A stretch of 64,000 bases of DNA from an uncultured bacterium (GCA_937864225.1 CALMJK010000016.1:34030-98029); one strand, 5' to 3'; counted from the first letter of the stretch, positions 31,649-54,014 are shown. Made by a program: numbers and translations. The notes: a model not told the origin generated them from the letters alone.

Positions 31649-31649
31649 G

Positions 31650-35642: not shown

Positions 35643-36460
35643 GGACGCTGCCGCATCGGACGGGGTGGCTGGTGGTGATGCTCCTGGCTAGCATCGTCGC
35701 CGCGCAGGAGGAGAGCGGCGGCCAGGCAGCCGACTCTTCGGGCACGCTCGAGCCTTTGGGCGCGGTCGTGCCCGACAGCTTGGCGCGCGTGCCGTTCGGA
35801 CCGGGCGAGCGGCTTGTCTTCACGATCGATTACGGCCCGATCAACGCGGGCGAGGGCACGCTCGAGGTACGGGGACTCGTGGAGACCGACGGCCACCCCT
35901 GCTACCTGATCGAGAGTCGAGCGCGCTCCAATCGGTTTTTTTCGGCCTTCTATATGGTGCGCGACAAGGTCGTCTCGCACATGGACGCGCGCCGGTTGAT
36001 CTCGCGCTATTTCATGAAACGCCTGCGCGAGGGCGATTACCGGCAGAACGTCGAGGTCCGCTTTGACCACGCGGCCGGCAAGGCTCACTATTTGGACGGA
36101 CGGACCTTTGACACGATGCCCGGCATCCAGGACATCCTGTCGGCCTTCTATTTCGTGCGGGCTCTGCCGCTGGAGCCGGGACGGGTTTGGCATGTGCGGA
36201 CGCACAGCTCTCGCAAGGACTATCCTCTCGAGGTCATCGTGCACGGCCGGGAACGGGTGAAGGTGCCGGCCGGCGAATTCGACTGTCTCGTCGTCGAGCC
36301 GGTCATTCAGGGAGAGGGACTTTTTCAGCACGAGGGGAAGCTGACGATCTGGCTCAGCGACGACGACCTGCGGATCCCGGTGCTGATGAAGACGAAGGTG
36401 AAGGTCGGGTCCATCGACGCGTCGCTCAAGGAGTTCGTGGCGGGGAAGCCGCTGGTCTGA
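35639..36460 (+). CDS. DUF3108 domain protein (secreted)
   Basis: A signal peptide is followed by the FTIDYGPINAG…LTIWLSDD..RIPV…KVGS pattern typical of DUF3108. The start overlaps the upstream stop (ATGA). Confidence 0.7.
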   Translation: MRTLPHRTGWLVVMLLASIVAAQEESGGQAADSSGTLEPLGAVVPDSLARVPFGPGERLVFTIDYGPINAGEGTLEVRGLVETDGHPCYLIESRARSNRFFSAFYMVRDKVVSHMDARRLISRYFMKRLREGDYRQNVEVRFDHAAGKAHYLDGRTFDTMPGIQDILSAFYFVRALPLEPGRVWHVRTHSSRKDYPLEVIVHGRERVKVPAGEFDCLVVEPVIQGEGLFQHEGKLTIWLSDDDLRIPVLMKTKVKVGSIDASLKEFVAGKPLV

Positions 36461-36548
36461 GCCCGGCGGAAGGGGGAGAGCTTTGGACGACGGGCGTGAC
36501 AGGGATCGGCCCGGAGATCCGCCCAAGCGCGCCTGGCCGGAGGCGGAC

Positions 36549-39112: not shown

Positions 39113-39795
39113 GACCGGACGTGTACGCCGACCGAGGGGGCTTCGACACGTGGACAGCCGCCGCCGCAGCCGACCTGCGCGCCGACGACGGGCTGGCGTA
39201 CCGCCTGCTCAAGCGGCTGTTCGATCTGGCGGCGTCGCTGATCGGCCTGGTGCTGCTGCTGCCGCTGTTCCCGTTCATTGTCGCGCTCATCAAGCTGGAT
39301 AGCCCTGGTCCCGTCTTCTTCCGCCAAGTGCGCGTGGGCAAGCGCGGGCGGCTTTTCACGTGCTGGAAATTCCGCTCCATGGTCGCCGATGCCGAAGAGC
39401 GCAAACTGGTCCTTGGCCATTTGAACGAGGTAACCGGCGCCGCGTTCAAGATCCGGAACGACCCGCGCGTCACCGACGTGGGTCGCTTCATCAGGCGCAG
39501 CAGCCTGGATGAATTTCCCCAGCTCTTCAACGTGCTGCGCGGCGAGATGTCGATCGTCGGGCCGCGGCCCCAGATTCCCGACGAGGCGCGGCAGTATTCG
39601 CCGTCGCAGGCGCTGCGGCTGATGGTCAAACCCGGTCTGACCTGTTTGTGGCAGGTGTCCGGACGAAGCCACCTCGATTTCGACGAGTGGATGGCGCTGG
39701 ATCTCGAATACGTGCGGCGGCGCGATCTGTGGCTGGATGCGTGGATCCTCACGCACACGCTGCCGGCGGTCATCGCGCGCAAGGGCGCCTATTGA
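39109..39795 (+). CDS. Bacterial sugar transferase (polyprenyl-phosphate hexose-1-phosphate transferase, PglC/WbaP C-terminal type)
   Basis: The translation carries LKRLFDL, PGPVFF.Q.R.G..G..F…KFR.M motifs and the PRP catalytic dyad region (SIVGPRPQ), followed by the DLEYV tail. GTG 39109 overlaps the upstream stop (GTGA). Confidence 0.85.
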   Translation: MRPDVYADRGGFDTWTAAAAADLRADDGLAYRLLKRLFDLAASLIGLVLLLPLFPFIVALIKLDSPGPVFFRQVRVGKRGRLFTCWKFRSMVADAEERKLVLGHLNEVTGAAFKIRNDPRVTDVGRFIRRSSLDEFPQLFNVLRGEMSIVGPRPQIPDEARQYSPSQALRLMVKPGLTCLWQVSGRSHLDFDEWMALDLEYVRRRDLWLDAWILTHTLPAVIARKGAY

Positions 39796-39807
39796 GGGGG
39801 TGGTGGC

Positions 39808-40182
39808 GTGCGCGGGCTCGGCGTGGATCTGACCGCCGTGGATAGAATGGGCACGATTCTCAGACGTCACGGCGACCGCTTCCGCGCGCGCTGTTTCGGG
39901 CCGTTGGAGCGGGCGCCCCGACCCGCGGAGACCGCCGCGGCGGAAACGGCCCGCTTGGCGGCCGCCTGGGCGGCCAAGGAAGCCTTCCTCAAGGCGGCGG
40001 GCGCGGGCCTGGACCGGGTGCCGCCGCGCCAGATTCAGCTCGTGCCGGGCGGCGCGGCGGGCTCGCGGCTGCTGCTGGGGCCCGAGGCTCGCGCGGCGCT
40101 GGCCGGGGCCGGGGCGGAGGCGGCGCGCGTGGCGGTCACGATCGGGGGCGGCTACGCGGCCGCGGTCGTCGTGTTGGACTAG
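39808..40182 (+). CDS. acpS: Holo-[acyl-carrier-protein] synthase (4'-phosphopantetheinyl transferase)
   Basis: The GVDLTAVDRM and WAAKEAFLKA motifs match AcpS, and the length of about 125 aa fits. Confidence 0.8.
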   Translation: MRGLGVDLTAVDRMGTILRRHGDRFRARCFGPLERAPRPAETAAAETARLAAAWAAKEAFLKAAGAGLDRVPPRQIQLVPGGAAGSRLLLGPEARAALAGAGAEAARVAVTIGGGYAAAVVVLD

Positions 40183-40314
40183 GCCGCGCTGCCCGCGGCA
40201 GCCTGCCCGGGCGGGGCTTGCCGCAGGCGGCGGCGCCGGGTAAGATGCGTTTCGCGCGGCGAAACGCTCAGCCGCTGTCCAACCCGTGCGCGGCGCTCAT
40301 GGGAGGGATCCCGT

Positions 40315-41247
40315 TTGATCCGGCTCTCGTACCTGCTGGTGGACGTCTTCACGCATCGCCCTTTCGGCGGCAGCCGGTTGGCGCTGTTCCCCAACGGCGA
40401 AGGACTTTCCGCCGGTCTGATGCAGGCGATCGCGGGGGAGATGGGGTGCGTCGAAGCGGCGTTCGTGTTGCCCAGCCGCACCGGCCGACGCAACTGGTCC
40501 GCGCTGCGCGTCTTCACGCCGACGGCGGAAATCCCGTTCGCGGGACACTCGGTCCTCGGCGCGACCTGCGCCCTCGACCACCTCGGGCGGCTGGCGCGCA
40601 CGGGCGAGCGGACCCTCTGTGAATGGGAGTTGGAATCGGGATATTTCCCCGTGTTGCTGCGCGAGGAGGAGGGGCGCACGCTTTACAGCCTGGTGCAGAA
40701 TCCTCCCGTCTTCATCGGCCAGTACTATCACCGCGACAAGGTGGCGCGGGCGCTCGGCATCCCGAGCGAGGAGATCGCCATCACCGGCCTGCCCTGCGAG
40801 ATCGTCTCGACCGGGCTTCCGATCCACATCGTGCCGGTCGGCTCGCTGGAAACCGTGCGGGCCATCACGTTGCAGCCGACGGAAGCCGATGCGATCGCGG
40901 TCGATCTCGGTTTCGGCGATCTGTTCGTGTTCACCTGCGAAACCGAATCCGCGGAGGCCGACGTGCACTGCCGCATGTTCGCGCCCCATTTCGGCATTCC
41001 CGAGGACCCGGCCAGCGGTTCGGCCAATGGGGCCCTAGCCGCCTACCTGATCAAGCACCGTTTGGTGCCGGCGCAGCCGCACGTGCGGCTGGTCAGCGAG
41101 CAGGGCCTCGAAATGGGTCGTCCCAGTCGCCTCATCGTGGAGGCCGAAGTCGAGAACGGCAGGGCCAGCCTCATCCAGGTCGGGGGAAACTGCGTCGTGC
41201 TGGGAGAAGGGGTGCTCTCGGTGCCGGACGATCTGCCCGCGGCCTGA
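40315..41247 (+). CDS. PhzF-family isomerase (phenazine biosynthesis-like protein)
   Basis: The N-terminus (LLVDVFTHRPFGGSRLALF) is typical of PhzF in the DAP-epimerase fold, and the conserved Glu is present in the VEAAFV context. Confidence 0.85.
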   Translation: MIRLSYLLVDVFTHRPFGGSRLALFPNGEGLSAGLMQAIAGEMGCVEAAFVLPSRTGRRNWSALRVFTPTAEIPFAGHSVLGATCALDHLGRLARTGERTLCEWELESGYFPVLLREEEGRTLYSLVQNPPVFIGQYYHRDKVARALGIPSEEIAITGLPCEIVSTGLPIHIVPVGSLETVRAITLQPTEADAIAVDLGFGDLFVFTCETESAEADVHCRMFAPHFGIPEDPASGSANGALAAYLIKHRLVPAQPHVRLVSEQGLEMGRPSRLIVEAEVENGRASLIQVGGNCVVLGEGVLSVPDDLPAA

Positions 41248-41292
41248 CCTGAGACTGCAGACACCAGACAGGAGCGAGGAGACGGAGCGCCC

Positions 41293-42939
41293 ATGACGCA
41301 TCCCGCCGGACTGAGCCAGGAAATGGCCGACATGGTCGTGCAGACGCTGCGCCAGGTGGCGCGGCGCGACCTGCCGGACGCGCGCGTGCTGAAACTCGAC
41401 CGGGAAGACGAGTTCCCGCACGATCTGATCCGGACGCTGCTTTCGCCCGAGGTCGGTCTCCACTTGATCTTCCTGCCGGAGGACGTGGGCGGTCTGGGCG
41501 GCGGCGCGCGCGACATCTGCAGGATCTCCGAGGAGATGGCGGCCGTCGACTTGGGCGTGGCGACGGCCTTTCTGGCGATCTGCCTGGGCACGGATCCGAT
41601 CCTGGTCGGCGGGACGCCCGAGCAGAAGACGCGCTGGCTCGGCCGCATCGCATCGGAGGGATTGATCGTCGCCTATGGGGTGACCGAGCCGGCGGCCGGC
41701 AGCAACGTCGCGGCGCTGCAGACGCGCGCCCAACCGGTGCGCGACGCCAGCGGCGCCGTGGAAAGCTACCGTCTCAACGGCACCAAGCAGTTCATCACCA
41801 ACGGAGGCGTCGCGCAACTCTACACGATTCTCGCCGCGGCGCCGGGGGGGCCCAGTTTCTTCATCGTCGAGCGCGACACGCCGGGCATGTCCGCCGGCCG
41901 TCACGAGGACAAGCACGGCATCCGCGCCTCGAACACCACGAGCGTGCAGCTCGATGACGTGATCGTCCCGGCCGATCATCTCGTGGGTCTGGCCGAGGGG
42001 CGCGGCCTCAAGCAGGCCAACGAGGTCTTCGGTTATACGCGTCTGATGGTGGGAGCCTTCGGGTTGGGAGCCGGCCAGAACGCGCTGGAGCGAGCCCTCG
42101 CCTACGCGCGGCAGCGAATCCAATTCGGCTCGCCCTTGATCGAGAAACAGGGCTACGCGCTCAAACTGTTGGCGCCGCATTGGGTCGATCTGGCGGCCGG
42201 CAGGGCCTACGTGCGCGAGATCGCACTGCGCATCGACAGCGGCGAGCGGGACCTGCAGGTCGAGGGTTCGATCGCCAAGCTGTGGTGCACCGAGGCCGGC
42301 AACCGCGCGGCCGACGCCGCGCTGCAGGCCTTGGGCGGGTACGGATACACGCGCGAGTACATGGTCGAAAAGATTCGGCGCGACGTGCGCATCACCAGCA
42401 TCTACGAGGGGACGAGCGAGATCCAGCAGGCCATCATCGGACTCTACCGCTGGAAGGAGACGGTGCGATCGAAGGGGGCGTTCTGGAGCGGCCAGGCGGC
42501 GCGTCTGGAGGACCTGCACGCCCGGCGCCCGGACGTCGGCGCCGCGCAGGCCGCCGCCGCCGCGCAGGCGCTCGGCCAGACGATCCTCCATTGCCACCAG
42601 TCCGGTTTGACGAAGCACCAGATCGTCCAGTTCCAACTGGCGGACCTGGCGGCCGTCGTGGAGGTGGCGGGCGCGTTTTGCCGCGATGCGGCGCAGGACG
42701 GCGACGAAGCGGCCGCCGACGCGGCCATGAGCCGCTGGTTCGCGCGCCGGGCGCTCGCCGCCGCGCGGCGGCGCGGTCTTGAAATCGTGCTGGGCGCCGT
42801 GGATCCGGGGGACGAGGCCGGCGTGGCGGCGGCGGGAACTTTCGCGGCGCGCGTGGCCGCCCCCGATGCTTGGCGCTCGCTCGTGGGGGGCTGGCGCGAC
42901 CTGGAGAGCGTGGCGGCCCACCTGCGCGCGCGGGCCTAA
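41293..42939 (+). CDS. Acyl-CoA dehydrogenase with about 170-aa Ala-rich C-terminal extension
   Basis: The translation carries the ACAD motifs (AYGVTEPAAGSNVAAL, YRLNGTKQFITNG, IYEGTSEIQ). A long low-complexity tail follows the catalytic domain. Confidence 0.85.
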   Translation: MTHPAGLSQEMADMVVQTLRQVARRDLPDARVLKLDREDEFPHDLIRTLLSPEVGLHLIFLPEDVGGLGGGARDICRISEEMAAVDLGVATAFLAICLGTDPILVGGTPEQKTRWLGRIASEGLIVAYGVTEPAAGSNVAALQTRAQPVRDASGAVESYRLNGTKQFITNGGVAQLYTILAAAPGGPSFFIVERDTPGMSAGRHEDKHGIRASNTTSVQLDDVIVPADHLVGLAEGRGLKQANEVFGYTRLMVGAFGLGAGQNALERALAYARQRIQFGSPLIEKQGYALKLLAPHWVDLAAGRAYVREIALRIDSGERDLQVEGSIAKLWCTEAGNRAADAALQALGGYGYTREYMVEKIRRDVRITSIYEGTSEIQQAIIGLYRWKETVRSKGAFWSGQAARLEDLHARRPDVGAAQAAAAAQALGQTILHCHQSGLTKHQIVQFQLADLAAVVEVAGAFCRDAAQDGDEAAADAAMSRWFARRALAAARRRGLEIVLGAVDPGDEAGVAAAGTFAARVAAPDAWRSLVGGWRDLESVAAHLRARA

Positions 42940-42971
42940 GGCAGACGGCAGGACGGAGCGACCGAACACCG

Positions 42972-43406
42972 ATGGCTGCAGGCGAGGCATTGTCGTGGAC
43001 GGCCCATCCTTTCCGGCGGCGCCGTGGGCGCGGTTGGGCCGGCTTGGCAGCCGCCGCGACGGCGCTCGGGCTCGTGCACCTGTGGGCGCGCTCGCTGGCG
43101 CTGACGCTTTTGGGCGGCGTCCTGCTGGCGGTTTCTCTCTGGCCCTTCTACTTCCCGGTGCGGTGGCGGCTGTCCGAGACGGAGATCACGGCTGATTTCG
43201 GCGCCTGGCGACGTCGCTGGCCGTGGGAGCGATTCAAGGGCTTTGTGGCGCTGGGCGACGGCGCCGTGCTGACGCCCTTTGCGCGGCCGCACGCGCTCGA
43301 GCGGTGGCGGACGCTTTGGCTGCCCTGCCCGGAGCGCGCGGACGACCTGCACGCTTGGTTGGCGCAGCGACTGCCCAGGCGCGGCGGGGAGGGGAACGGC
43401 CCGTGA
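42972..43406 (+). CDS. Small membrane protein, bacterial PH-domain (bPH_2/YdbS)-like (putative)
   Basis: It has two N-terminal TM helices, and the roughly 80-aa soluble domain after them is PH-like by pattern. This is a weak call. Confidence 0.35.
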   Translation: MAAGEALSWTAHPFRRRRGRGWAGLAAAATALGLVHLWARSLALTLLGGVLLAVSLWPFYFPVRWRLSETEITADFGAWRRRWPWERFKGFVALGDGAVLTPFARPHALERWRTLWLPCPERADDLHAWLAQRLPRRGGEGNGP

Positions 43407-43780
43407 GTGAAAGGAGCGGCGAGCGGGAGGCGGCCGCGCGCGCCGATGTGGCGTCTCTCCTGGCGGAAGCGGGTGCCGCGCCGGCGGGCCTGGCGGCCGC
43501 AGACGACCGGCTGCTGGCCGAGGTGGCGTTGGCGGTGAAGCGAAGAGGGTTGGAGACCCCCGCCGTGCTGTGGTTGGAAAGCCTGCGCCCGCTCTCTTTC
43601 CTCGGCGCTCAAGCCATGCATTTCCTCACGCCCTTCGTGCAGGCCTTCATTCCCGCGGACCGTTTTCGTCGCTTGGCGTCCGTGCTGGAGGAGCGGGCGA
43701 ACCTGGAACGCCTCGTCCGCCTCGTCGAAGTCGCGGCAAGCTCCGCTCCGGCCGCGAAAGATCGCGGGGGTGGGGCTTGA
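43403..43780 (+). CDS. Hypothetical protein (GTG start overlapping upstream stop, GTGA)
   Basis: The reading frame is open and translationally coupled, with no recognisable domain. Confidence 0.35.
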   Translation: MSERSGEREAAARADVASLLAEAGAAPAGLAAADDRLLAEVALAVKRRGLETPAVLWLESLRPLSFLGAQAMHFLTPFVQAFIPADRFRRLASVLEERANLERLVRLVEVAASSAPAAKDRGGGA

Positions 43781-43845
43781 GCGCGCATCCCGCCGCAGAA
43801 AGGCCCGCCGGAGGTCCCGGACCACGGCCCTGCAACGTCATCCTG

Positions 43846-45630
43846 ATGACGGACTGCGGGTCAACGTCGACCAAGGCCATTCTCATCGAGCGGCGGGATG
43901 GGCAGTACCGTCTGGTCGCGCGAGGCGAGGCGCCCACGACGGTCGAGGCGCCCTGGGAGGATGTCACGCGGGGTGTTCGCAACGCCATCGCGGAGGTCGG
44001 GGAGGTGACCGGGCGCCGCCTGCTGGATCCGCATTCGGGCGGCCTGATCACGCCTTCGCGAGGAGACGAAGGTGTCGACCTGTTTTTGAGCACGAGCAGC
44101 GCGGGGGGCGGGCTGCAGATGCTCGTGGTCGGGGTCGTGCGGAACATGACGGCCGAAAGCGCGGAACGCGCCGCCCTCGGCGCGGGTGCGATCGTGACCG
44201 AGGTCATCGCGTTCAACGATCACCGACGCCCGCACGAGCAGATAGAGCGCATCCGGCACTTGCGTCCGGACATGATCCTGCTGAGCGGGGCGGTCGACGG
44301 CGGCAGCACCTCTCATGTCGTGAAGCTGGCGGAACTGGTGGCGGCGGCGGAGCCCAGGCCGCGGCTGGGCGGCGGCGGCCGGTTGCCGTTGATCTATGCC
44401 GGCAACGTGGCGGCGCGCGAGGAGGTGTCGTCGGCGCTGGGCGAATGCGTGGACCTGGTCCTGACGGAGAACCTGCGGCCGATCCTCGAACGGGAGAATC
44501 TCGGTCCGGCGCGCGCGAGAATCCACGAGGTCTTTCTGGAGCACGTCATGGCGCGCGCGCCCGGGTACGCGCAGTTGATGGATCTGTGCGACAGCCCCAT
44601 CGTCCCAACGCCGGCCGCCGTCGGAGACATGGTCAAGCGCATCGCCGCCGAAGAAGGGTGCGACGTGCTGGCCGTCGACATCGGCGGTGCGACCACGGAC
44701 ATCTTCTCGATGTTCGACGGACAGTTCAACCGGACCGTGAGCGCCAACCTCGGCATGAGCTACAGCGTGGCGAACGTGCTGCGCGCCGCGGGGTTGCCGG
44801 GTGTCATGCGATGGGTCCCGCTGCATCTGGAAGAGCGCGAGCTGCGCGATCGCCTCCTGAACAAGATGATTCGGCCCACGACGGTCCCGCAGCTGCTGGA
44901 GGAACTGGTTCTGGAGCAGGCGGTCGCGCGTGAAGCCTTGCGTCTGGCCTTCCAGCAGCACCGCGGTTTCGCGAGCGGGCTGAAGGGGGTGCACCGCGCA
45001 CACGGCATGGGGGACGCCTTCCACCAAGCCGGTCCGGACGCCACCCTGGCGGACATGATGCGGCTGGGTTTGATCATTGGGTCGGGCGGCGTGCTTTCGC
45101 ACGCGCCGCGGCGGGCTCAGGCCGCGCTGATGCTGATCGACGCCTTCCAGCCGGAAGGCGTGACGCGGCTGGCCGTCGATTCGGTCTTCATGCTGCCGCA
45201 ACTGGGCGTACTGGCGAATGTGCACGCCGAGGCGGCGCGGCAGGTGCTGCGAAACGACTGCCTCGTGCGCTTGGGGACCTGCGTGGCGCCGGTCGGGCCG
45301 GCCGTGCGCGCCGGCTGTGCCGTGGCGTCGGTTCAATTGACGGAGCGCGACGGCCCGAGGCGCGAGATTCGGCTCGGCGCGGGGGAACTCGTGCGCGTGC
45401 CGCTGGCGGCGGGCGCGCAGGCTCATCTGTGCGTGCGCCCGGCGCGCGGATTCGACGCGGGCGCGGGGCCGGGCGCCGTGCTGGAGACCGACGTCGACGG
45501 CGGTGAGGTGGGCGTGATTCTCGACGCGCGGGGCCGGCCGATCGCGCTGGCGGCGGACGAGCCGGGGCGGCTTGCCCAATTGCGCAGGTGGCACGCGGCG
45601 CTCGATCTCTACCCGGAGGCGATCGCGTGA
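43846..45630 (+). CDS. GlmL/MutL-EutA-like ASKHA-superfamily ATPase (duplicated actin-like fold)
   Basis: The N-terminus MTDCGSTSTKAILIE matches phosphate-1 of GlmL (IDFGSTYTK-type). LSTSSAGGGL is a phosphate-2-like motif. The second half carries LAVDIGGATTDIFS, the DIGGATTD hallmark of the GlmL/EutA and hydantoinase-A families. Confidence 0.55.
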   Translation: MTDCGSTSTKAILIERRDGQYRLVARGEAPTTVEAPWEDVTRGVRNAIAEVGEVTGRRLLDPHSGGLITPSRGDEGVDLFLSTSSAGGGLQMLVVGVVRNMTAESAERAALGAGAIVTEVIAFNDHRRPHEQIERIRHLRPDMILLSGAVDGGSTSHVVKLAELVAAAEPRPRLGGGGRLPLIYAGNVAAREEVSSALGECVDLVLTENLRPILERENLGPARARIHEVFLEHVMARAPGYAQLMDLCDSPIVPTPAAVGDMVKRIAAEEGCDVLAVDIGGATTDIFSMFDGQFNRTVSANLGMSYSVANVLRAAGLPGVMRWVPLHLEERELRDRLLNKMIRPTTVPQLLEELVLEQAVAREALRLAFQQHRGFASGLKGVHRAHGMGDAFHQAGPDATLADMMRLGLIIGSGGVLSHAPRRAQAALMLIDAFQPEGVTRLAVDSVFMLPQLGVLANVHAEAARQVLRNDCLVRLGTCVAPVGPAVRAGCAVASVQLTERDGPRREIRLGAGELVRVPLAAGAQAHLCVRPARGFDAGAGPGAVLETDVDGGEVGVILDARGRPIALAADEPGRLAQLRRWHAALDLYPEAIA

Positions 45631-46742
45631 GCCACGCCTATTATCCCGGGCTGTCGGTCAGCGGCTGGACGATGTTGCGCCGGGAGCGACTGTTGCCGGT
45701 TGCGGGCGAAGTCCTGGTCAACGTGGGCCAGGTGGTCGCGCCGGACACGCTGGTGGCGCAAACGGTCCTGCGCGGGCAACTCATCCCGGTGAACGTGGCC
45801 GCCAGCCTCGGAGTGTCTCCGGAAGAGGTGCCGGGTTCGCTGCTCAAGGAACTCGGAGATGCCGTGGAATCCGGCGAGATCCTGGCACGCACGAAGGGGT
45901 TGTTCGGCCTGCTCCGCAGCGAGTGCCGGGCCCCTGCCGGCGGTGTCATCGCCTCGATCTCCGCGGTGACGGGGCAGGTCATGCTCGAGGGGCCCGCGGT
46001 GCCGGTGCAGGTGCGGGCCTGGCTGTCGGGAACCGTGGCCGAGGTGCGCCCGGAGCGGGGAGCCGTCGTCGCGTCGGGCGGCGCTTGGTTGCAAGGCGTG
46101 TTCGGGCTGGGGGGCGAGACGTGGGGGGCGCTGGTTCTGGCGGTGTCGGCGCCCACGGACGTGCTGGAAGAGCCGGACATCACGCCGGCCATGCGCGGCA
46201 AGGTCGTCGTGGGAGGAGCGCTGGCGACGCTGGGCGCCCTGCGGCGCGCCGCCGAGGTGGGGGTCGCCGCGGTCGTCACCGGGGGTGTGCATGCGCTCGA
46301 CCTGGGCGCGTTCCTGGGTGAGGAGATCGGCGTGGCGGTGACCGGCGCGGAGGAGATCGGATTCACTCTTGTGGTGACCGAGGGCTTCGGCCAGGTCGCG
46401 ATGGCCAGGCGGACCTTTCGCCTGCTGGGCGAGAAGGAAGGTTTCATCGCGAGCGTGTGCGGCGCGACGCAGATCCGCGCGGGCGTGGTGCGTCCAGAGA
46501 TCATCGTGCCGACCGCCGCGAGCGAGCGGCTGGCGGCGGAGACGGCCGCTTCGGGCGGGATCGAGGTCGGGGCTCCGGTGCGGCTGATCCGGGCGCCCCA
46601 TTTCGGGGCGATCGGTCTGGTGCGGGAATTGATCGCTCAACCGCAGGTTCTCGAGAGCGGCGCGCGCGTGCGCGTGCTGGTGGCTGAGCTCGAGAACGGC
46701 CTGCGGGTGACGGTGCCCCGCAGCAACGTGGAAGTTTTCTGA
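45627..46742 (+). CDS. Hypothetical protein, Gly/Val/Ala-rich, possible barrel-sandwich/Rossmann-like regions
   Basis: GTG 45627 overlaps the upstream stop (GTGA). No confident family match was found. Confidence 0.4.
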   Translation: MSHAYYPGLSVSGWTMLRRERLLPVAGEVLVNVGQVVAPDTLVAQTVLRGQLIPVNVAASLGVSPEEVPGSLLKELGDAVESGEILARTKGLFGLLRSECRAPAGGVIASISAVTGQVMLEGPAVPVQVRAWLSGTVAEVRPERGAVVASGGAWLQGVFGLGGETWGALVLAVSAPTDVLEEPDITPAMRGKVVVGGALATLGALRRAAEVGVAAVVTGGVHALDLGAFLGEEIGVAVTGAEEIGFTLVVTEGFGQVAMARRTFRLLGEKEGFIASVCGATQIRAGVVRPEIIVPTAASERLAAETAASGGIEVGAPVRLIRAPHFGAIGLVRELIAQPQVLESGARVRVLVAELENGLRVTVPRSNVEVF

Positions 46743-46752
46743 CGGAGAAGAC

Positions 46753-47571
46753 GTGGCGGGCTGGTTCGAGCAAGCCAACTGGAACCTGGCGCTGTTCACG
46801 CTGATCCTGGGCGGCGTTCTGCTGGCGTCCATCCGGGCCGCGCTGCGCGGTCGCGTGCCCCGGGTGCGCGTTCTGCCGGGCGTCGCGGCGATGGCTGAAG
46901 CCGTCGGCCGCGCCGTGGAAATGGGGCGTCCCGTCTTTTTCGTGCCCGGCACGCGCGACCTGGACAACGTGCAGACGGTGGCGGGACTGGCAGTGCTAGG
47001 CGAGTTGGCCGCGCTCACGGCGCGTCTGGAGTGCCGCCTGGAGGTGCTCACGGACCGCAGCCTGGTCATGGCCGCGGCGCGCGAGGCGGGGCGCGCGGCC
47101 TACCTGGCCGCCGGGCGCCCGGAGACCTGGCGCGACGACAGTGTCAGCTACGTGTCGGACGACCAGTTCGGCTTTGTCGCGCGCGTGGACGGCCTGATCG
47201 CGCGCGAAAGGCCCGCCACCTGCTTCTGGTTGGGCGCTTTCTCGGCCGAGTCGCTGCTGCTGGCCGAAGCGGGCAGTCAGATCGGCGCCATCCAGATCGC
47301 GGGCACGGCCGAGCGCAGCCAACTGCCGTTCTTCATCGCCGCCTGCGACTACACGCTGATCGGAGAGGAGTTGTTCGCGGCGAGCGCCTGCCTGACGGGC
47401 GATCCGGCGCTGCTCGGTACCCTGCGGGGACAGGACCTCGGCAAGGCGGTGGCGGGCGGCGCTCTTCTGCTGGGATCGCTGCTGGCGACCGCCGCGGCGC
47501 TCACGCACTGGCCCTTCATCGTGAAGCTGCAGAGCGCCCTCCAACGCCTGTTCAGCGCGGGAGGTCCGTGA
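46753..47571 (+). CDS. Membrane-anchored protein (single N-terminal TM helix + soluble domain)
   Basis: The N-terminus WNLALFTLILGGVLLASI is a TM helix. The protein appears paralogous to the gene at 48283. Confidence 0.45.
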   Translation: MAGWFEQANWNLALFTLILGGVLLASIRAALRGRVPRVRVLPGVAAMAEAVGRAVEMGRPVFFVPGTRDLDNVQTVAGLAVLGELAALTARLECRLEVLTDRSLVMAAAREAGRAAYLAAGRPETWRDDSVSYVSDDQFGFVARVDGLIARERPATCFWLGAFSAESLLLAEAGSQIGAIQIAGTAERSQLPFFIAACDYTLIGEELFAASACLTGDPALLGTLRGQDLGKAVAGGALLLGSLLATAAALTHWPFIVKLQSALQRLFSAGGP

Positions 47572-47572
47572 C

Positions 47573-48286
47573 ATGCGCAGCCGGGCTCCGCAGTTGCTCG
47601 TCGCCGCCGTCGGGATTCTCCTCGTGCTGACGGCCTTCGTGCCGCGTCCGGCGCCGGGAGCGGGCAATGCCTGGCAGGGCTTCTTTGCCTACATCGACGA
47701 GAATTTCTCGGTCTGGTTCAACATCATGGCGGTGTTCGCCTTCGGGCTGGGCGCCGCCAGCTTGTTGGGGGTGCATGGAGGGCGCGTGCGGCGGCGAGGG
47801 CGCGATTGGCCCTATTCGCTGGCCACGTTGCTGGCTTTCGGCGTGACGCTGCTGGTCGGGCTCCTCAAGCTGGGCGGGCCGCCGGGGCTGACGGGCGACC
47901 CGGCCGACTCCGCGTCGATTCTCGGACGCATCTTCGCGGCGGTGGTCAGCCCCCTGCAGGCCAGCATGTTCGCCTTGCTCGCGTTCTTCGTCGCCTCGGC
48001 GTCCTATCGGGCCTTTCGCGTGCGCACGCGGGAGGCCTCGGCGCTGCTGGCCGCCGCCCTGGTCATCCTCATCGGACGCACGCCCTTCGGTTCCGCCCTC
48101 ACGCAGTGGTTGCCGGAGCCGCTGGCGTTCCTGCGCCTGGAACGGCTGTCGCTGTGGATCGTGCAGGTGCCCAACCTGGCGGGACAGCGAGCGATCATGA
48201 TCGGCATCGCGTTGGGCGTGGTGGCCATGTCCCTGCGCCTGATCCTCGGCCTAGAGCGGGGCGTGCTGGGGAAGGAAAGGCCGTGA
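47573..48286 (+). CDS. Integral membrane protein (about 6 TM helices)
   Basis: Hydrophobic segments recur throughout the protein. The start lies 1 nt after the upstream stop. Confidence 0.45.
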   Translation: MRSRAPQLLVAAVGILLVLTAFVPRPAPGAGNAWQGFFAYIDENFSVWFNIMAVFAFGLGAASLLGVHGGRVRRRGRDWPYSLATLLAFGVTLLVGLLKLGGPPGLTGDPADSASILGRIFAAVVSPLQASMFALLAFFVASASYRAFRVRTREASALLAAALVILIGRTPFGSALTQWLPEPLAFLRLERLSLWIVQVPNLAGQRAIMIGIALGVVAMSLRLILGLERGVLGKERP

Positions 48287-49170
48287 CCGGGACGGAACAC
48301 ACGGCCGGCTCCTCGCGGCGAGCAACGGGTCTGGCCACTCTGGACCGGCGCTGGATCTATCTGGCGTTGGCGGCCGCGATCGCGCTTTCCATCGTGGCTC
48401 GCATCCGCTTCCCCGACACGCCGTCCCCTCTGGTCCAGGCGGCCTACGACCGGGTGGAGACGCTGCCGCCGGGCGCGTCGATCGTCATGGCGCTCGACTA
48501 TTCCCCCAGCTCGCGCCCCGAACTCGAGCCGATGGCCTTTGCCATCGCGCGACACGCGATGCTGCGCGGGCACCGCTTGATCCTGCTCTCCACCTGGGAC
48601 ACGGGCAACGCGATGATCGCGCGCCTGTGCACGGAGGTGTTGCGCCGCGAATTTCCGGAGCGCCGCGAGGGCGAAGCATGGGTGGCGTTGGGTTACAAGT
48701 CCGGAAACGAGATGCTGATCAACGCCATCCGGCAGGATTTCGACTCGATGTACGCGAGCGACATGGAAGGCCGTTCTTGCGCGGATCTCGCGGTCCTGGC
48801 GGGCGTGGAAAGCCTGGCAGACTGCACACTGATCGTCTCGCTGTCGAGCGGCACGCCGGGCTTGAAGGAGTGGGTGCTGTTCGCGGGTGACGTGACGGGC
48901 GTGCCGGTGGTCGGCGGCAGCACGGGCGTCGGCACGCCGGAGTTCCTGCCGTACTTCCCGCGGCAGATCCGCGGCTTGCTGGGCGGGCTCAAGGGGGCCG
49001 CGGAATACGAGGCCGCGCTGGAGCTGGGCCATCCGGATTTCCACCAGCGCACGATGGCCGCGACCGACGGCATGGGTCCGCAAGCCGTTGCGCACAGCCT
49101 GATCGTCCTGTTCATCGTGCTGGGCAACGTCGGGCTGTTGTTGCAGCGACGGCAGAGGCGGGGGACATGA
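48283..49170 (+). CDS. Membrane protein with N- and C-terminal TM anchors and central soluble domain
   Basis: GTG 48283 overlaps the upstream stop (GTGA). TM helices sit at both ends. Confidence 0.45.
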   Translation: MTGTEHTAGSSRRATGLATLDRRWIYLALAAAIALSIVARIRFPDTPSPLVQAAYDRVETLPPGASIVMALDYSPSSRPELEPMAFAIARHAMLRGHRLILLSTWDTGNAMIARLCTEVLRREFPERREGEAWVALGYKSGNEMLINAIRQDFDSMYASDMEGRSCADLAVLAGVESLADCTLIVSLSSGTPGLKEWVLFAGDVTGVPVVGGSTGVGTPEFLPYFPRQIRGLLGGLKGAAEYEAALELGHPDFHQRTMAATDGMGPQAVAHSLIVLFIVLGNVGLLLQRRQRRGT

Positions 49171-49859
49171 GCGGGGGCCTGCACTTGAGCAGTTCGGTCG
49201 AAGTGTGGGTCGGGGCCGCTCTGACGCTGATGGTGTTCAGCTATCTCTGGCGCGACAACCCCTTCTACAAGCTGGCTGAACATGTGTTCGTGGGCGTGTC
49301 CGCGGCCTATGTCATGGTGCTTGGCTTTTGGACCACGCTGTGGCCGAATGCGATCGCGAAGCTGTGGCCCGGCGCCGCGCGCCTGACGACGCCCGAGGCC
49401 GTCGAGCCGACCCACGACTGGGCGCTCTTGCTGCCCGTGATTCTCGGCTTGCTGATGCTGGGTCGCCTGCACCCGCGCACGGTCTGGCTGAGTCGCTGGC
49501 CGACGGCCTTCGCGATCGGCACCAGCGCGGGATACAATCTCGTCCGCTACCTGCGCTCCGATTTCCTGGCGCAGATCCACTCGGGGATGACGCCCAGCTT
49601 GATCGCCACGACCGGGGGGCGCCTGGCGCTCGGGGAAAGCCTCTCGCACGCGATTCTGCTCGGGGGGACGATCTGCGGGATCGTCTATTTCACGTACACG
49701 CGCCAGCACCGCGGGGCTTGGGCCCGGGTCGCCGGCACGGGCGTCCTTTTCATGATGGTCACCTTCGGGACGACCTTCGGCTACACCGTCATGGCGCGGA
49801 TTTCCTTGCTGGTGAGTCGGCTGCACTTCTTGCTGGGCACCTGGCTCGGCCTGATCTAG
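49167..49859 (+). CDS. Integral membrane protein (about 6 TM helices)
   Basis: ATG 49167 overlaps the upstream stop (ATGA). The protein is multi-TM. Confidence 0.45.
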   Translation: MSGGLHLSSSVEVWVGAALTLMVFSYLWRDNPFYKLAEHVFVGVSAAYVMVLGFWTTLWPNAIAKLWPGAARLTTPEAVEPTHDWALLLPVILGLLMLGRLHPRTVWLSRWPTAFAIGTSAGYNLVRYLRSDFLAQIHSGMTPSLIATTGGRLALGESLSHAILLGGTICGIVYFTYTRQHRGAWARVAGTGVLFMMVTFGTTFGYTVMARISLLVSRLHFLLGTWLGLI

Positions 49860-49919
49860 GCGGAGGGGACGCGGCGCGCCTGCAGGCTACAGATCCGCAG
49901 CCGTCTGCCGAAGATAAAG

Positions 49920-49949
49920 TTGACGGTTCGGCTCCCCGAACCCTAGACT
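49920..49949 (+). promoter_or_regulatory. Candidate promoter TTGACG-18-TAGACT with 16-bp palindrome GTTCGGctccCCGAAC in the spacer
   Basis: The sequence was read directly. It lies about 40 nt upstream of the TPR gene, and the palindrome may be an operator. Confidence 0.4.
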
Positions 49950-49986
49950 CGCCGGGCCGGCAGGGCGACCTGCCGACGGGGGGAAG

Positions 49987-50862
49987 GTGCGCATGCAGGA
50001 GAGTTCCGCCAGCTTAGCGCGTCAAATCGAGTTCTATCAGCGCAAATACGAGCTCAGCCCCCACTCGCGGGCGTTCGCCCCGCTCGCCGATCTGTACCGC
50101 AAGGCGGGGCGCCTCGATGAGGCGATCGAAGTGCTGGCCGGAGGGCTGTCGGAGCACCCACGCTACGTTTCCGCGCTTGTGATCCTGGCGCGTTGCCACC
50201 TGGACGCGGGACGGGCCGTGGAGGCGGGCTCGGCCTTTGGCAGGGTGTTGGAATTGGATCCCGACAATCTCGTGGCGCTCAAGCAACTGGCCGAACTGGC
50301 CGAGGTCGCCGGGGATCGCCAGCAGGCCGCGGCTTTCCTGGAACGCGTGATCGTGCTGGACCCGACGGACGAGCAGGCGACGGAGCGGCTGGAGGATCTG
50401 CGTCGTCCGGGCGGGGCGGTCGCGGCGGAAGAACAAGCGGGCGCGTCGGATGCGAGTCGCGCCGGGCCGAAGGGCGCGGTCGAGACGGCCGGCGCGATGG
50501 CCCACGCCCCCGGCGCCGGGACGGGGACGGCGGCGATGGGCGGCCAGGCTCCGGCCGGGCCGGACGCGCAGCGGGGCGAACGCCAGTCCTTCGCGACGCG
50601 GACGCTGGCGGAGGTCTATCTCGCGCAGGGCTACCGGGACAAGGCGGTGGCGGTCCTGCGGCAGATCCTGGCCCGACATCCCGAACGAAGCGACGTGGCG
50701 GCCAAGATCGCCGAGATCGAGAATCTACCCGCCGAGTCCATCGCGTCGCTCTCGTCGGCGGAACCTGCGGCGGTCCCGACGGCGCCCGGAGTTGGCCCGC
50801 CCAGCCGCGAGCACTTCGACGCTTGGCTGAAGCGAATCACGAAGCCGGAAGAGCGCTCTTGA
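49987..50862 (+). CDS. TPR-repeat protein
   Basis: TPR-like helices are present (YRKAGRLDEAIEVL…, LAEVYLAQGYRDKAVAVLRQIL). Confidence 0.6.
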   Translation: MRMQESSASLARQIEFYQRKYELSPHSRAFAPLADLYRKAGRLDEAIEVLAGGLSEHPRYVSALVILARCHLDAGRAVEAGSAFGRVLELDPDNLVALKQLAELAEVAGDRQQAAAFLERVIVLDPTDEQATERLEDLRRPGGAVAAEEQAGASDASRAGPKGAVETAGAMAHAPGAGTGTAAMGGQAPAGPDAQRGERQSFATRTLAEVYLAQGYRDKAVAVLRQILARHPERSDVAAKIAEIENLPAESIASLSSAEPAAVPTAPGVGPPSREHFDAWLKRITKPEERS

Positions 50863-51311
50863 CGCCCGTTCGCTCCGTGGCCGTGCTCAATGGCCCCAAC
50901 CTCGACCGCTTGGGGGCGCGGCAGCCCGCGCTGTACGGCGACATGCCCTGGCCCGAACTCGTGGCGCTGGTGCAGGAGTGGGCGCGCGAGTTGGGTCTGT
51001 CGGCGGCCGTGAGTCAGGCGGCCGGGGAAGGCGAGTTGGTCCAACTGGTGCACGCCGCCGGGCGTGACTGCGCCGGGATCGTCCTGAACGCCGGCGCCTA
51101 CACGCACACTTCGGTCGCGTTGCGCGACGCCGTGCTGTCGGTCGCCGTTCCCATCGTGGAGATTCACCTGACCAACCCGGCCCGGCGCGAGGCGTTTCGG
51201 CACGTGAGCCATCTATCCGACGTGGTGACCGGCACCGTTCAGGGTTTCGGCGCCGTCGGGTACCGTTTGGCCCTGGTCGGCCTGGCGGACCTGCTGGCTC
51301 GGCGCAAATAG
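50862..51311 (+). CDS. aroQ: 3-dehydroquinate dehydratase, type II
   Basis: The LNGPNLDRLGARQPALYG motif and downstream conserved His and Arg residues identify the enzyme. The start codon is uncertain (TTG or GTG). Confidence 0.8.
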   Translation, partial: TPVRSVAVLNGPNLDRLGARQPALYGDMPWPELVALVQEWARELGLSAAVSQAAGEGELVQLVHAAGRDCAGIVLNAGAYTHTSVALRDAVLSVAVPIVEIHLTNPARREAFRHVSHLSDVVTGTVQGFGAVGYRLALVGLADLLARRK

Positions 51312-51347
51312 AGTGCTGAAAAGCGATTGGATCGCGGCACGCGGCCA

Positions 51348-51376
51348 TTGCCAAGGCAGTTCCCCGGTGCTATCAA
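51348..51376 (+). promoter_or_regulatory. Candidate promoter TTGCCA-17-TATCAA upstream of efp
   Basis: The hexamers were read directly in the intergenic region. Confidence 0.35.
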
Positions 51377-51435
51377 TGGGGCGCGCGCGGCAGCCGGCCG
51401 CGCCCGATCGGCGCGCGAGAAAGCGAGGCTTTTTC

Positions 51436-51993
51436 TTGGCTTCCACCAGTGATTTTCGCAACGGCATGGTGATCCGCTTCCGCGAGGGGCTGTGGAGCAT
51501 CGTGGAATTCCAGCACGTCAAGCCGGGCAAGGGCGGCGCCTTCGTCCGCACCAAGCTGAAGAACGTCGAGTCCGGTCGGGTCGTCGAGGAAACATTCCGG
51601 GCAGGGGAGAGGGTGGAGGACATCCGCCTGGAGCGGCGCGATTTCCAGTACCTTTACCGCGAGGGCTCTTTCTTCACGTTCATGAACTTGGAAACGTACG
51701 AGCAGATCCACATCGCCCAGGAGCAATTGGGCGACGTGCCGCTGTACCTCAAGGAGGGGGAAAAGGTCATTCTGGTTCTGCACGACGAGCGATCGCTCGC
51801 GGTCGAACCCCCTTACACCGTCGAATTGAGAGTGGACAAGACGGATCCCGGCCTGCGCGGCGACACCGCGCAGGGCGGCACCAAACCGGCCACGATGGAG
51901 ACCGGTCTCGTGATTCAGGTGCCGCTGTTCATCGAGGAAGGGGAGGTGCTGAAGGTCGACACGCGCACCGGCAAGTACATCAGCCGTGTTTGA
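51436..51993 (+). CDS. efp: Elongation factor P
   Basis: The tip loop [15 protein letters not shown] carries the conserved Lys, and the three KOW/OB-domain layout is present. The start is a TTG, giving [15 protein letters not shown]. Confidence 0.9.
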
Positions 51994-52021
51994 CGCGCGC
52001 CAGTCCCAAGGAAAGGATGCC

Positions 52022-52495
52022 ATGGAGATCGATAACGTGCGCCAGCTGGTGAAGCTCGTCGAGGAAAGCGGAATCGAGGAGCTGGAAATCAGCAGCGAGG
52101 GCACCACGATTCGCATCCAGAAGCAGCGTAGCTGCGACCGTTCGCCCGCGGCCGCCATGTTTTCCGCCGCCTATCCTTTCCCGGTCGCCCCGGTGGCGCC
52201 GGTGGGCGTGGCGCCTGCGGCGGTGTCCAGCGCGGTGACCGAGGAACGGGCCCGCTGGAAGGAATTCCGCTCGCCGATCGTGGGGACTTTCTACCGGGCG
52301 CCGGCGCCGGGCGCCGAGGCGTTCGTGAACGTCGGCGACCGCGTCGGGGCGGGGCAAACCCTGTGTATCATCGAAGCCATGAAGGTCATGAACGAGATCG
52401 AAGCGGAATTTCCGGGCGTCATCAGGGAGATCCTGGTCGAGAACGGCAGCCCGGTGGAGGCGGAGGCCATCCTCTTCCTCTTGGAGCCTGCCTGA
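52022..52495 (+). CDS. accB: Biotin carboxyl carrier protein of acetyl-CoA carboxylase
   Basis: The C-terminal biotinyl domain carries the [11 protein letters not shown] (AMKM) motif, and an Ala/Pro-rich linker precedes it. An AAGGAAAGG RBS lies upstream. Confidence 0.85.
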
Positions 52496-52531
52496 GCGCG
52501 CCGAGCGCCGGCCAGGCCAGGTCAGTTCGCC

Positions 52532-52572
52532 GCCGCCCCGGCCCCCGCGGCCGGGGCGGCGCATTTTGTGTT
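52532..52572 (+). terminator. Rho-independent terminator after accB (12-bp perfect GC stem gccgccccggcc/ggccggggcggc, loop cccgc, followed by a T-rich tail gcattttgtgtt)
   Basis: The hairpin and T-tract were read directly from the sequence. Confidence 0.6.
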
Positions 52573-52681
52573 CCTCCCCGCTCAAGCCCCGCCCCGGCTT
52601 GGCCGATGATGAATGGGCCACTTGCCGGCCCGCCAGGGACGCGAACGCCGGCGGACACGTTCGTGAGGGAGAGGACCACCC

Positions 52682-53833
52682 ATGGAGATCAAGCCGATCC
52701 TGCAGGCGATGATCGAGCACAAGGCCAGCGACCTCCACCTGAAGGTCGGGGTCAAGCCCATTCTCAGGGTCAATGGCCGACTCGTGCCCGTCGAATTTCC
52801 GGCGCCGTCGCCCAAGGACATGATCCAGATCGCGCAACAGATCCTGACCCCGGCGCAACGGGAGATCTTCGAATCCACGCGCGAGATCGATTTCGCGTTC
52901 GGCGTGCCCGGCCTGGCGCGGTTTCGCGCCAATTTTTACGTGCAGCGAGGCACGATCGCGATGGTGTTCCGCCATGTCCCGGTGGAAATCCAGGACTTCG
53001 AGAGCTTGGGCCTGCCGTCGGTCGTGAAAGAGTTGGCAAGTTGCCGTCGCGGGCTGATCCTGGTCACCGGCACGGTGGGCAGCGGCAAGTCCACGACGCT
53101 CGCGGCGCTCGTGGACACGATCAACTCGAGCATGCCCTCCAACGTGATCACGATCGAGGATCCGATCGAGTTCCTGCACCGGGACAAGATGAGCCTGATC
53201 AATCAACGCGAGGTGGGCACGGACACGGGCTCCTTCGCGGAGGCGTTGCGGCACATCCTGCGCCAGGACCCCGACGTGATCCTGATCGGCGAAATCCGCG
53301 ACGCCGATTCGATGAAGGTGGCGCTCACCGCCGCCGACACCGGTCACCTGGTGCTGAGCACGCTGCACACGGTCGACGCGACGCAGACCATCAGCAGGAT
53401 CATCTCGTTCTTCCCGCCTCATCAGCATCAGGAAATCCGTTACCTGCTCGCGTCCACGCTGCAGGCCATCATCTCGCAGCGGCTCATCCCGGACATCGCG
53501 GGGGTTCGCCGCTATCCCGCCGTGGAGGTCATGATCAACACCAGCACGATCCGCGAGTACATCGAGGACCCGGAAAAGACGGTGTTGATCCGGCAGGCGA
53601 TCCAGGAGGGTTTCGTCCAGTACCAGATGCAGACGTTCGACCAGGCGTTGATGGCCATGTACAAGGAGAAACTGGTTTCCCTGGAAGAGGCGCTCAAGGC
53701 GAGCAGCAACGCGCACGAATTCGCGCTGCGGGTCAAGGGTATCCAGGCCAGTTCGGACGTCACCTGGGACCGCTTCGAGACGGAAAAGACGAACGAATCG
53801 ACACCGCCCGAGACTCAGTTCTCTCGCATCTGA
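52682..53833 (+). CDS. pilT: Type IV pilus retraction ATPase PilT (twitching motility)
   Basis: The translation carries Walker [11 protein letters not shown] and the Asp box, with His boxes (IGEIRD…LVLSTLHT), and full-length PilT/PilU conservation. GC content is visibly lower than in the neighbouring genes. Confidence 0.85.
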
Positions 53834-53846
53834 TCTGAGCCCGGCC

Positions 53847-53881
53847 GGGGCGCGGGGCCGGCGGAGCCGGCCCCGCGCCCC
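53847..53881 (+). terminator. Perfect 15-bp GC hairpin (ggggcgcggggccgg-cggag-ccggccccgcgcccc) immediately after pilT, no U-tract
   Basis: The palindrome was read directly. It is a likely intrinsic-terminator-like structure of the kind seen in high-GC genomes. Confidence 0.45.
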
Positions 53882-54014
53882 GACGGCGGGCGATTCCGGC
53901 TTGCCATTCCCCGGCACCAGGGCGACAATAGCCGCCGCGATGAAACGCTCCACGGGCGAGCACGTTGCCGTGCGCGCGGCCGGGCGGGGGCGCGTTCAAG
54001 ACGGAGTGTCCCGC

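Follow-up and report, generated by a model that had tools for sequence, protein, structure and literature searches.

A conserved gene cluster linking a GlmL/MutL-family ATPase to a four-gene membrane cassette: probably an undescribed envelope or membrane machine

ASKHA proteins of the GlmL/DdrA/EutA type have been proposed to work by prying apart Rossmann-type clients, and the reactivases of this group (GlmL/MutL, Or-4, EutA and DdrA) are the described proteins closest to an ATPase encoded in an eight-gene cluster of an uncultured bacterium (GCA_937864225.1, CALMJK010000016.1:34030-98029; "the window" is the whole stretch of 64,000 nucleotides that was analysed). The cluster (o1 to o8, Table 1) had been picked out in a first-pass annotation, made from the sequence alone, as an unrecognised membrane-associated ASKHA system. 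It comprises two small proteins (o1 and o2), the ATPase (o3), a putative partner of the ATPase (o4) and a cassette of four membrane proteins (o5 to o8). We refer to o2-o4 as module A and to the cassette as module B. Comparative data support and strengthen the central claim of that annotation, and the cluster probably encodes an undescribed envelope or membrane machine.

The ATPase resembles the known reactivases in two ways. It matches the Pfam family MutL (PF13941) over the full length of the profile (E 5.7e-124; 414.8 bits, the gathering score being 27; residues 2-472 of 594 in the form that starts at ATG 43846, profile positions 4-450 of 450), and it carries both ASKHA phosphate motifs, phosphate-1 TDCGSTSTK and phosphate-2 VDIGGATTD, which are invariant or near-invariant in 25 homologues. 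The DIGGATTD hallmark and the GlmL/MutL branch proposed at first pass are thus borne out, and the retention of both motifs across the subfamily suggests ATPase competence, which counts in favour of the machine proposed below. Furthermore, as DdrA has DdrB, o3 appears to have small or medium-sized obligate partners, o2 and o4. The differences are equally clear. The protein stays below the NCBIfam cut-offs (NF040745, 229 against 475 bits; NF040744, Or-4, 206 against 600; TIGR01319, 164 against 204), bears an additional conserved C-terminal domain of ~120 amino acids (aa) in an alignment of 25 homologues, and is never found beside a B12 mutase, aminomutase or lyase, being linked instead to the four-protein membrane cassette. 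As noted at first pass, no B12-enzyme partner accompanies the ATPase: glmS/glmE, oraS/oraE or a similar client is absent from the window and does not recur in ~160 related loci. When its profile was compared with all PDB sequences, no relative was found at E<=0.01. In short, o3 belongs to the Pfam MutL family but is not an orthologue of GlmL.

The invariant core of the system is the four-gene membrane cassette. A scan with an alignment of DUF6754, the family of o5, taking one genome per species, recovered at least 596 species, and the best 80 loci were examined. These belong to Zixibacteria, Eisenbacteria, Gemmatimonadota, Ignavibacteria, Caldithrix, Planctomycetota (among them metagenome-assembled genomes, MAGs, labelled Gimesia and Singulisphaera), Acidobacteriota and the clade of the window, whose nearest named relatives are Candidatus Krumholzibacteria. 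The genes o6, o7 and o8 follow o5 in 66 of the 67 species-level loci with enough downstream flank, in at least seven named phylum-level groups. The cassette is 40-60% identical between Planctomycetota, Acidobacteriota and Zixibacteria, and it has thousands of metagenomic homologues. The cluster had been described as built around its ATPase, and this view has to be corrected, as the core is the cassette, often without an ATPase nearby. Identity between phyla is strong for single proteins of both modules (50-70% for o5, 48-70% for o3 and 43-67% for o4), which fits what a tightly constrained machine would show.

Modules A and B are repeatedly, although not universally, linked; the linkage spans four phyla or more and takes several forms. 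Of the 54 loci that could be followed for 8 kb or more upstream, 26 have o3/o4 no further than 10 kb from the cassette, including all those of Planctomycetota (7/7), Acidobacteriota (6/6) and the window clade (4/4), together with 5 of 12 in Zixibacteria and 2 of 5 in Ignavibacteria. Approached from the other side, in metagenome loci found with an o4 alignment, the gene immediately preceding o4 is o3 in 42 of 54 cases, and the cassette is present in 13 of the 30 o4-centred metagenome loci with at least 6 kb downstream. By a rough estimate, such proximity would be expected by chance in far fewer than 1% of cases for genomes of a few Mb. The two modules can be adjacent and co-directional, as in L088 ([146 aa][89 aa]-MutL-o4-FN3_DUF6754-230-291-367); in Zixibacteria and Ignavibacteria the layout is divergent, with two or three tandem cassettes, and in some loci a second cassette separates o3/o4 from the first. 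Gene order is thus kept outside this genome, both within the cassette and, in several phyla, between the modules. The complete cluster is also present in the MAGs labelled Singulisphaera and Gimesia, genera with cultured strains.

All eight genes are real. The window, which corresponds to ENA contig ERZ781239 NODE_9, has a GC content of ~70%, even across the region and with no break, and in all eight + strand open reading frames (ORFs) the third codon position (GC3) reaches 0.79-0.90 against ~0.5-0.6 at position 2, the pattern expected for genes in a 70% GC genome. Moreover, a public protein collection holds all eight proteins with identical boundaries (o3 there from ATG 43846), so that independent gene calls agree with the ORFs first annotated. 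The four overlaps of 4 nt reported for the cluster are all present (GTGA at 43403, 45627 and 48283, for o1/o2, o3/o4 and o6/o7; ATGA at 49167, for o7/o8). The remaining gaps had been given as 1-10 nt, which is right for o4/o5 (10 nt) and o5/o6 (1 nt) and wrong for o2/o3, where the distance from the annotated start of the ATPase, ATG 43846, is 65 nt. That start is probably itself 23 codons too far downstream: an in-frame TTG at 43777 overlaps the o2 stop codon as TTGA, and the added codons restore a "VIL" beta-strand ahead of DxGST, as in 25 homologues, so that o3 most likely begins at this TTG and is 617 aa long. With this start the chain is unbroken, every junction being a 4-nt overlap or a gap of at most 10 nt. 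The gene organisation suits translational coupling, in agreement with the first proposal of a co-directional, coupled operon in which a GlmL/MutL-family ASKHA ATPase is combined with four integral membrane proteins. Across 39.5-51.5 kb there is a single sigma-70-like promoter match (TTGACG-18-TAGACT), situated after the o8 stop codon and ahead of a downstream TPR gene, so the transcription unit most likely ends at o8, which suggests that the downstream genes are on a separate transcript.

With respect to the cassette proteins, o5 matches DUF6754 (PF20539) over nearly its whole profile (E 4.3e-97, 324.7 bits against 27; protein residues 3-249, profile positions 4-250 of 257), a family without assigned function. 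Its AlphaFold2 model, built from a 120-sequence alignment (predicted local distance difference test score, pLDDT, 93.9), has an N-terminal transmembrane (TM) helix, then a Rossmann-like alpha/beta/alpha domain with six strands and, at the C-terminal end, long TM/amphipathic helices. Invariant residues are found mostly in loops after beta-strands in the model and the alignment, and such loops are where ligands or partners bind in Rossmann folds. According to hydropathy and the positive-inside rule, o5 is predicted to be N-out with a cytoplasmic domain, which fits the signal peptide plus FN3 found ahead of the TM helix in many homologues. In the tandem-cassette genomes the o5 paralogues (415-518 aa) carry long N-terminal FN3-like extensions. 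By the same criteria o7 would be N-in and C-in with a periplasmic domain. Its C-terminal TM helix carries a conserved Q/H/N and is followed by the cytoplasmic tail RRQRR (39 homologues aligned), and its homologues form 3113 clusters at the 50% identity level among 1.84 billion representatives. The six-helix protein o6 has the conserved motifs LLAFFVASASYRAFRA and AGQRAIMIGIALG (38 homologues aligned), and o8 a conserved cytoplasmic loop, DNPFYKFAEH, and the motif YFFFSKEHKG.

The topology of the cassette, predicted from hydropathy and the positive-inside rule, is backed by natural o7-o8 fusions (579-598 aa; P0371, P0381 and P0389), in which the two parts are separated by a single additional TM helix and by a linker of ~60 residues; joining the C-terminus of o7 to the N-terminus of o8 needs exactly one added TM helix. 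In another protein, P0370 (630 aa), the periplasmic domain of o7 is duplicated. The domains of o5 and o7 are predicted to face opposite sides of the membrane. Of the TM counts given at first pass, about six helices each in o6 and o8 stand, while o5 and o7 have two helices each and are not single-pass. The probable paralogy of o5 with o7, together with that of o6 with o8, finds no support, as it is not detectable by hhalign (probabilities of 2.4% and 0.1%).

Pfam assigns no family to six of the eight proteins and only a DUF to a seventh. For o6 there was no Pfam, NCBIfam or PDB relative, for o7 no Pfam or PDB relative, and for o8 no significant Pfam/NCBIfam match and nothing from its profile against all PDB sequences; when the members of the o6, o7 and o8 homologue sets were run against Pfam at E<=1, only scattered TM noise was obtained. 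None of the eight proteins matched a PADLOC defence model at E<=0.01. In the PDB profile searches o4 alone showed weak local matches (KOW-like and barrel-sandwich hybrid), and o3 and o5-o8 gave none that was relevant. Altogether, none of Pfam (beyond MutL and DUF6754), NCBIfam, PADLOC, PDB-sequence or fold comparisons points to a function, and the full-text literature yielded no paper on DUF6754, on PF13941 or on GlmL with ASKHA. The statement that the cluster matches no described transport, secretion or motility system has therefore stood up to the hidden Markov model searches, which found no characterised match.

Several membrane systems nevertheless resemble the cluster in parts list or architecture. 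The parts list of Rnf/Nqr complexes is analogous, with two small, oppositely oriented 6-TM subunits (NqrD/E), an anchored periplasmic subunit (NqrC/RnfG) and a peripheral cytoplasmic subunit (NqrA/RnfC) whose N-terminal barrel-sandwich hybrid domain may have a counterpart in o4. However, the cluster has no significant Rnf-Nqr (PF02508), FMN_bind or Complex1_51K matches and no Fe-S motifs, the only Rnf-Nqr matches being at noise level (E 0.014) in 2 of 38 o6 homologues, with none for o7 and o8. Moreover, o6 and o8 share no homology, and the cluster has an ASKHA ATPase instead of a flavin/Fe-S oxidoreductase. ABC systems of the GldA-GldF-GldG type combine an ABC-2 permease with a periplasmic auxiliary protein anchored at both ends, which recalls the 6-TM subunit, o7 held by its N- and C-terminal TM helices, and the cytoplasmic ATPase. 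In this case the ATPase is of the actin fold, and no ABC_tran, ABC2_membrane or ABC_transp_aux match rises above noise in the eight proteins and their homologues. In PilM-PilN-PilO, as in GspL and FtsA, an actin-fold protein is genetically coupled to anchored partners that reach the periplasm, but o3 is of the MutL/GlmL subfamily, the cluster lacks PilN/O, secretin and pilin genes, and among the partners of o3 are two polytopic proteins and a Rossmann domain on the cytoplasmic side. MotA_ExbB and ExbD/MotB domains are absent from the eight window proteins, TolQ/TolR being found near o4 only in loci of the Zixibacteria/Ignavibacteria type. The cluster lacks the defining sequence features of all these systems, and in our assessment it fits no known kind.

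The putative cytoplasmic partner of the ATPase, o4, had been taken for a Gly/Val-rich hypothetical protein, a description that can be replaced. It appears to consist of an N-terminal lipoyl-like barrel-sandwich hybrid, a central alpha/beta region and a C-terminal KOW/SH3-like domain, with the enzyme-like invariant motifs TEGFG and GATQIRAG, both in the central region, and RPE. The window protein alone gave no significant Pfam/NCBIfam match; when 30 homologues were scanned singly, Biotin_lipoyl was matched in 19 (best 5e-11), RnfC_N in 17 (best 1.4e-6), NQRA_N in 10 and KOW in 7, the generic Biotin_lipoyl scoring better than RnfC_N/NQRA_N. Against the PDB, its profile gave weak matches to the KOW of SPT5/NusG and to the hybrid domain of RNA polymerase. 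The hairpin position varies (K/H/G/A/S) and falls outside the columns conserved at >=90%, and biotinylation or lipoylation of o4 is ruled out by the lack of a conserved modifiable Lys, so o4 is not a biotin or lipoate carrier. The Pfam scan found no carboxyltransferase in the cluster. A "subunit-swap", in which the alpha/beta region of o4 would be akin to the domain of o5 or o7, was also rejected (probabilities of 0.07% and 0.22%). In all, 4754 homologues of o4 were collected. In five loci of a further lineage (L104, L125, L126, L129 and L133) o4 occurs without o3 and is followed by a 293-aa protein, accA and era; the 293-aa protein has a signal peptide and looks like an outer-membrane beta-barrel.

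Upstream of the ATPase, o2 has the conserved core PA..(W/F)LES.RPL.FLG.QAMHF..P and no significant Pfam or NCBIfam match. It immediately precedes o3 in 21 genome loci and in many metagenomic ones, and in Candidatus Krumholzibacteria it is fused to the N-terminus of the ATPase (MutL proteins of 709-711 aa; o2 part E 3e-15), which suggests that o2 is a partner or N-terminal domain of the ATPase. The first gene of the cluster, o1, encodes a protein with TM segments at about residues 22-62 in a hydropathy scan, no significant Pfam match (AzlD came closest, at a sub-threshold E of 0.037) and no NCBIfam match; at E<=0.1 both databases gave only noise, and no bPH family model was matched, so that these searches do not confirm the PH-like label given at first pass. 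Upstream of o2/o3, homologues were found only in the clade of the window and, as weak matches of 24-29% identity, in Acidobacteriota and a handful of metagenome loci; the Krumholzibacteria relatives lack it. Its distribution makes o1 a probable accessory, lineage-restricted component.

How, then, could the two modules work together? We put the chances at about even that the cluster is a conserved two-module machine in which the ATPase module A drives or remodels the membrane complex B. Module B would be a hetero-oligomeric inner-membrane complex with the two unrelated 6-TM subunits o6 and o8, in which o5 would present its Rossmann-like domain to the cytoplasm and o7 its alpha/beta domain to the periplasm. 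Module A, soluble or peripheral, would consist of o2, the GlmL-type ASKHA ATPase o3 and its obligate partner o4, and it might dock on the cytoplasmic face of B, most plausibly at the DUF6754 domain, on which it could act by analogy with the prying of Rossmann-type clients by GlmL/DdrA/EutA. ATP binding and hydrolysis by A would then drive or re-set conformational changes in B, and the output across the membrane might be substrate transport or mechanical or enzymatic work done in the periplasm or envelope through o7. The o7-o8 fusions are consistent with the cassette being a unit, and the o2-o3 fusions with module A being another. An envelope context also suits this machine: the window is rich in lipopolysaccharide (LPS)/O-antigen genes, and in loci of the Zixibacteria/Ignavibacteria type the o3/o4 genes head a tol-pal cluster. 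A fuller version, to which we lend only tentative credence, well short of even, is that the cluster represents an unrecognised class of envelope machine in which a GlmL-type actin-fold ATPase, with o2 and o4, energises a four-subunit inner-membrane complex reaching from cytoplasm to periplasm, widespread in the FCB (Fibrobacterota-Chlorobiota-Bacteroidota) and PVC (Planctomycetota-Verrucomicrobiota-Chlamydiota) groups and in Acidobacteriota.

Several observations weigh against a two-module machine. About half of the cassette loci have no o3/o4 inside 10 kb, among them all those counted from Eisenbacteria (0/3), Caldithrix (0/2) and Gemmatimonadota (0/1), and in a dispersed layout o4 stands alone, for example in Poribacteria. 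Cassette-only loci and lone o4 genes suggest that the cassette may work without the ATPase. The adjacency of o3/o4 to Tol-Pal genes, confined to related lineages, may be plain synteny. The DUF6754 fold is generic, so the o5 model is no functional pointer, and the predicted structure of o8 is weak and equally silent. Finally, we know of no biochemically established mechanism for the GlmL family of its own, and to the best of our knowledge no GlmL-type protein powers a membrane complex.

Incomplete linkage (26/54 and 13/30) could also be read as meaning that the genes form no system and that the ATPase pair and the cassette are unrelated neighbours, brought together by chance or hitch-hiking. 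However, the linkage recurs in at least four phyla and several gene arrangements, far above random expectation, and overlaps of 4 nt or short gaps span the o4/o5 boundary, so that the comparative data bring chance adjacency close to refuted, with next to no likelihood left to it. The absence of o3/o4 near many cassettes and the lone o4 genes are also in keeping with a link of metabolism only. The cassette would then be an autonomous ion-coupled transporter or membrane enzyme, and o3/o4 two soluble enzymes dependent on ATP (similar to kinases, hydantoinases or oxoprolinases) and acting on the small molecule that is transported, the modules being co-regulated and not physically coupled. ASKHA includes many kinases and ATP-dependent hydrolases or carboxylases, o3 has weak sub-threshold matches to Hydantoinase_A (E 2.5e-4) and Hydant_A_N, the invariant motifs of o4 are enzyme-like, and high cross-phylum identity is typical for core enzymes. 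Nonetheless, the clustered flanking ORFs contain no recurring catabolic enzymes, regulators or binding proteins, the contexts are housekeeping or envelope and not catabolic islands, and the 4-nt overlaps run through both modules, which indicates matched expression; we regard this explanation as unlikely, if still one to be taken seriously.

The membership of o3 in Pfam MutL invites its canonical role, in which it would reactivate an enzyme that depends on cobalamin, the new corrinoid-binding client being o4 or the DUF6754 domain. An inserted domain of o3 gives a weak sub-threshold B12-binding match (E 0.0029, 17.9 against 32.1 bits), and the client-like domains of o4 and o5 are of the Rossmann type, the fold class of B12-binding domains. 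Nevertheless, o3 lies under every NCBIfam GlmL/Or-4 cut-off, neither the window nor the ~160 related loci yielded a catalytic subunit of a mutase or aminomutase, no cobalamin riboswitch or other Rfam element is present in 39000-52000, and a B12-binding Pfam match is absent for the window o4 and o5 and for the 30 o4 homologues. Like chance adjacency, this role fits the data poorly and is very improbable. A cytoskeletal or cell-division role, with o3 as a polymer or tethered scaffold like FtsA, MreB or PilM and the cassette as an anchor coordinating constriction with Tol-Pal, draws on the actin-fold superfamily of o3, on the o3/o4 genes heading a tol-pal cluster in the Zixibacteria/Ignavibacteria-type loci, on FtsK ~5.5 kb downstream in the window and its relatives, and on the occurrence of the system in Planctomycetota, some of which lack FtsZ. 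This role, too, is in our view quite improbable: the FtsK and Tol-Pal adjacencies are lineage-specific synteny, the sequences show no sign of filament interfaces, and a review of the actin superfamily groups glutamate mutase (GlmL/MutL family) with the enzymes, apart from the polymer-forming families (PMC5597319).

Wide occurrence together with cross-phylum conservation bears the mark of an important machine under mechanistic constraint, and the cassette has escaped notice because most of its hosts have not been cultured. If the ATPase drives the membrane complex, the GlmL branch of the actin superfamily would extend beyond the maintenance of B12 enzymes. It would also represent a new coupling of cytoplasmic ATP to inner-membrane work, besides ABC, P-type, AAA+ and ion-driven motors.

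Table 1. Coordinates of the cluster and of other features discussed (window positions, unless a related locus is named; topologies are predictions)
Feature	Position	Strand	Description
o1	42972..43406	+	144 aa, two N-terminal TM helices and small C-terminal domain; GC3 0.85
o2	43403..43780	+	125 aa, helical
o3	43777..45630	+	GlmL/MutL-family ASKHA ATPase with extra C-terminal domain; most likely TTG start (first-pass and public start ATG 43846)
o4	45627..46742	+	371 aa, putative cytoplasmic partner of the ATPase
o5	46753..47571	+	DUF6754 protein, first cassette gene
o6	47573..48286	+	237 aa, six TM helices, N-in and C-in
o7	48283..49170	+	295 aa, N-in TM helix, periplasmic alpha/beta domain of ~220 aa, C-terminal TM helix
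o8	49167..49859	+	230 aa, about six TM helices, N-out, last cassette gene
Promoter-like site	49920-49949	+	sigma-70-like match
LPS/O-antigen genes	8098-12142, 30488-39795		glycan genes of the window
Peptidase_C25/FG-GAP protein	14263-19224		1653 aa
accB to accC	52022-55395		BCCP and biotin carboxylase genes
T2SSE/PilT-like ATPase gene	52682-53833		between accB and accC
o2-o3 fusion	L169 4310-6439		Candidatus Krumholzibacteria relative
o2-o3 fusion	L170 4340-6475		Candidatus Krumholzibacteria relative
o3-x-o4 with tol-pal	L091 9191-17202		also L097, L100, L101, L120, L164, L029, L056, L067, L069
o4 without o3	L104 11126-13866		followed by 293-aa protein, accA, era

Clustering of the flanking ORFs showed that only o2-o8 are widely shared, with no further universally associated gene. 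The PhzF and acyl-CoA dehydrogenase (ACAD) genes upstream, suggested at first pass as possible members of the same transcript, and the TPR gene downstream are syntenic only in the window clade and were rejected as parts of the system, the TPR gene being in addition split off by the promoter-like site. In the Krumholzibacteria loci L169 and L170 the order is that of the window: PMT_2, Bac_transf, ACPS, PhzF, ACAD, the cluster, TPR, EF-P, BCCP, T2SSE, AccC and FtsK. In all three a gene for a T2SSE/PilT-like ATPase is inserted between accB (biotin carboxyl carrier protein, BCCP) and accC (biotin carboxylase).

The Zixibacteria/Ignavibacteria-type loci show two peculiarities. Eight of them (L029, L056, L064, L067, L069, L074, L091 and L164) have two or three tandem paralogous DUF6754 cassettes beside a single o3/o4 pair, and in this type of locus o3-x-o4 heads a tolQ-tolR-tolA-tolB-pal-cpoB cluster, where x is an anchored periplasmic protein of ~258 aa with a signal peptide and a C-terminal TM anchor. 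Among the glycan genes of the window are those for a Wzy_C O-antigen ligase, a GT4 protein (MraY/WecA-like), two GT9 heptosyltransferases, PMT_2 (ArnT-like) and Bac_transf, and the window also encodes a large Peptidase_C25/FG-GAP protein with a FlgD_ig-like C-terminus.

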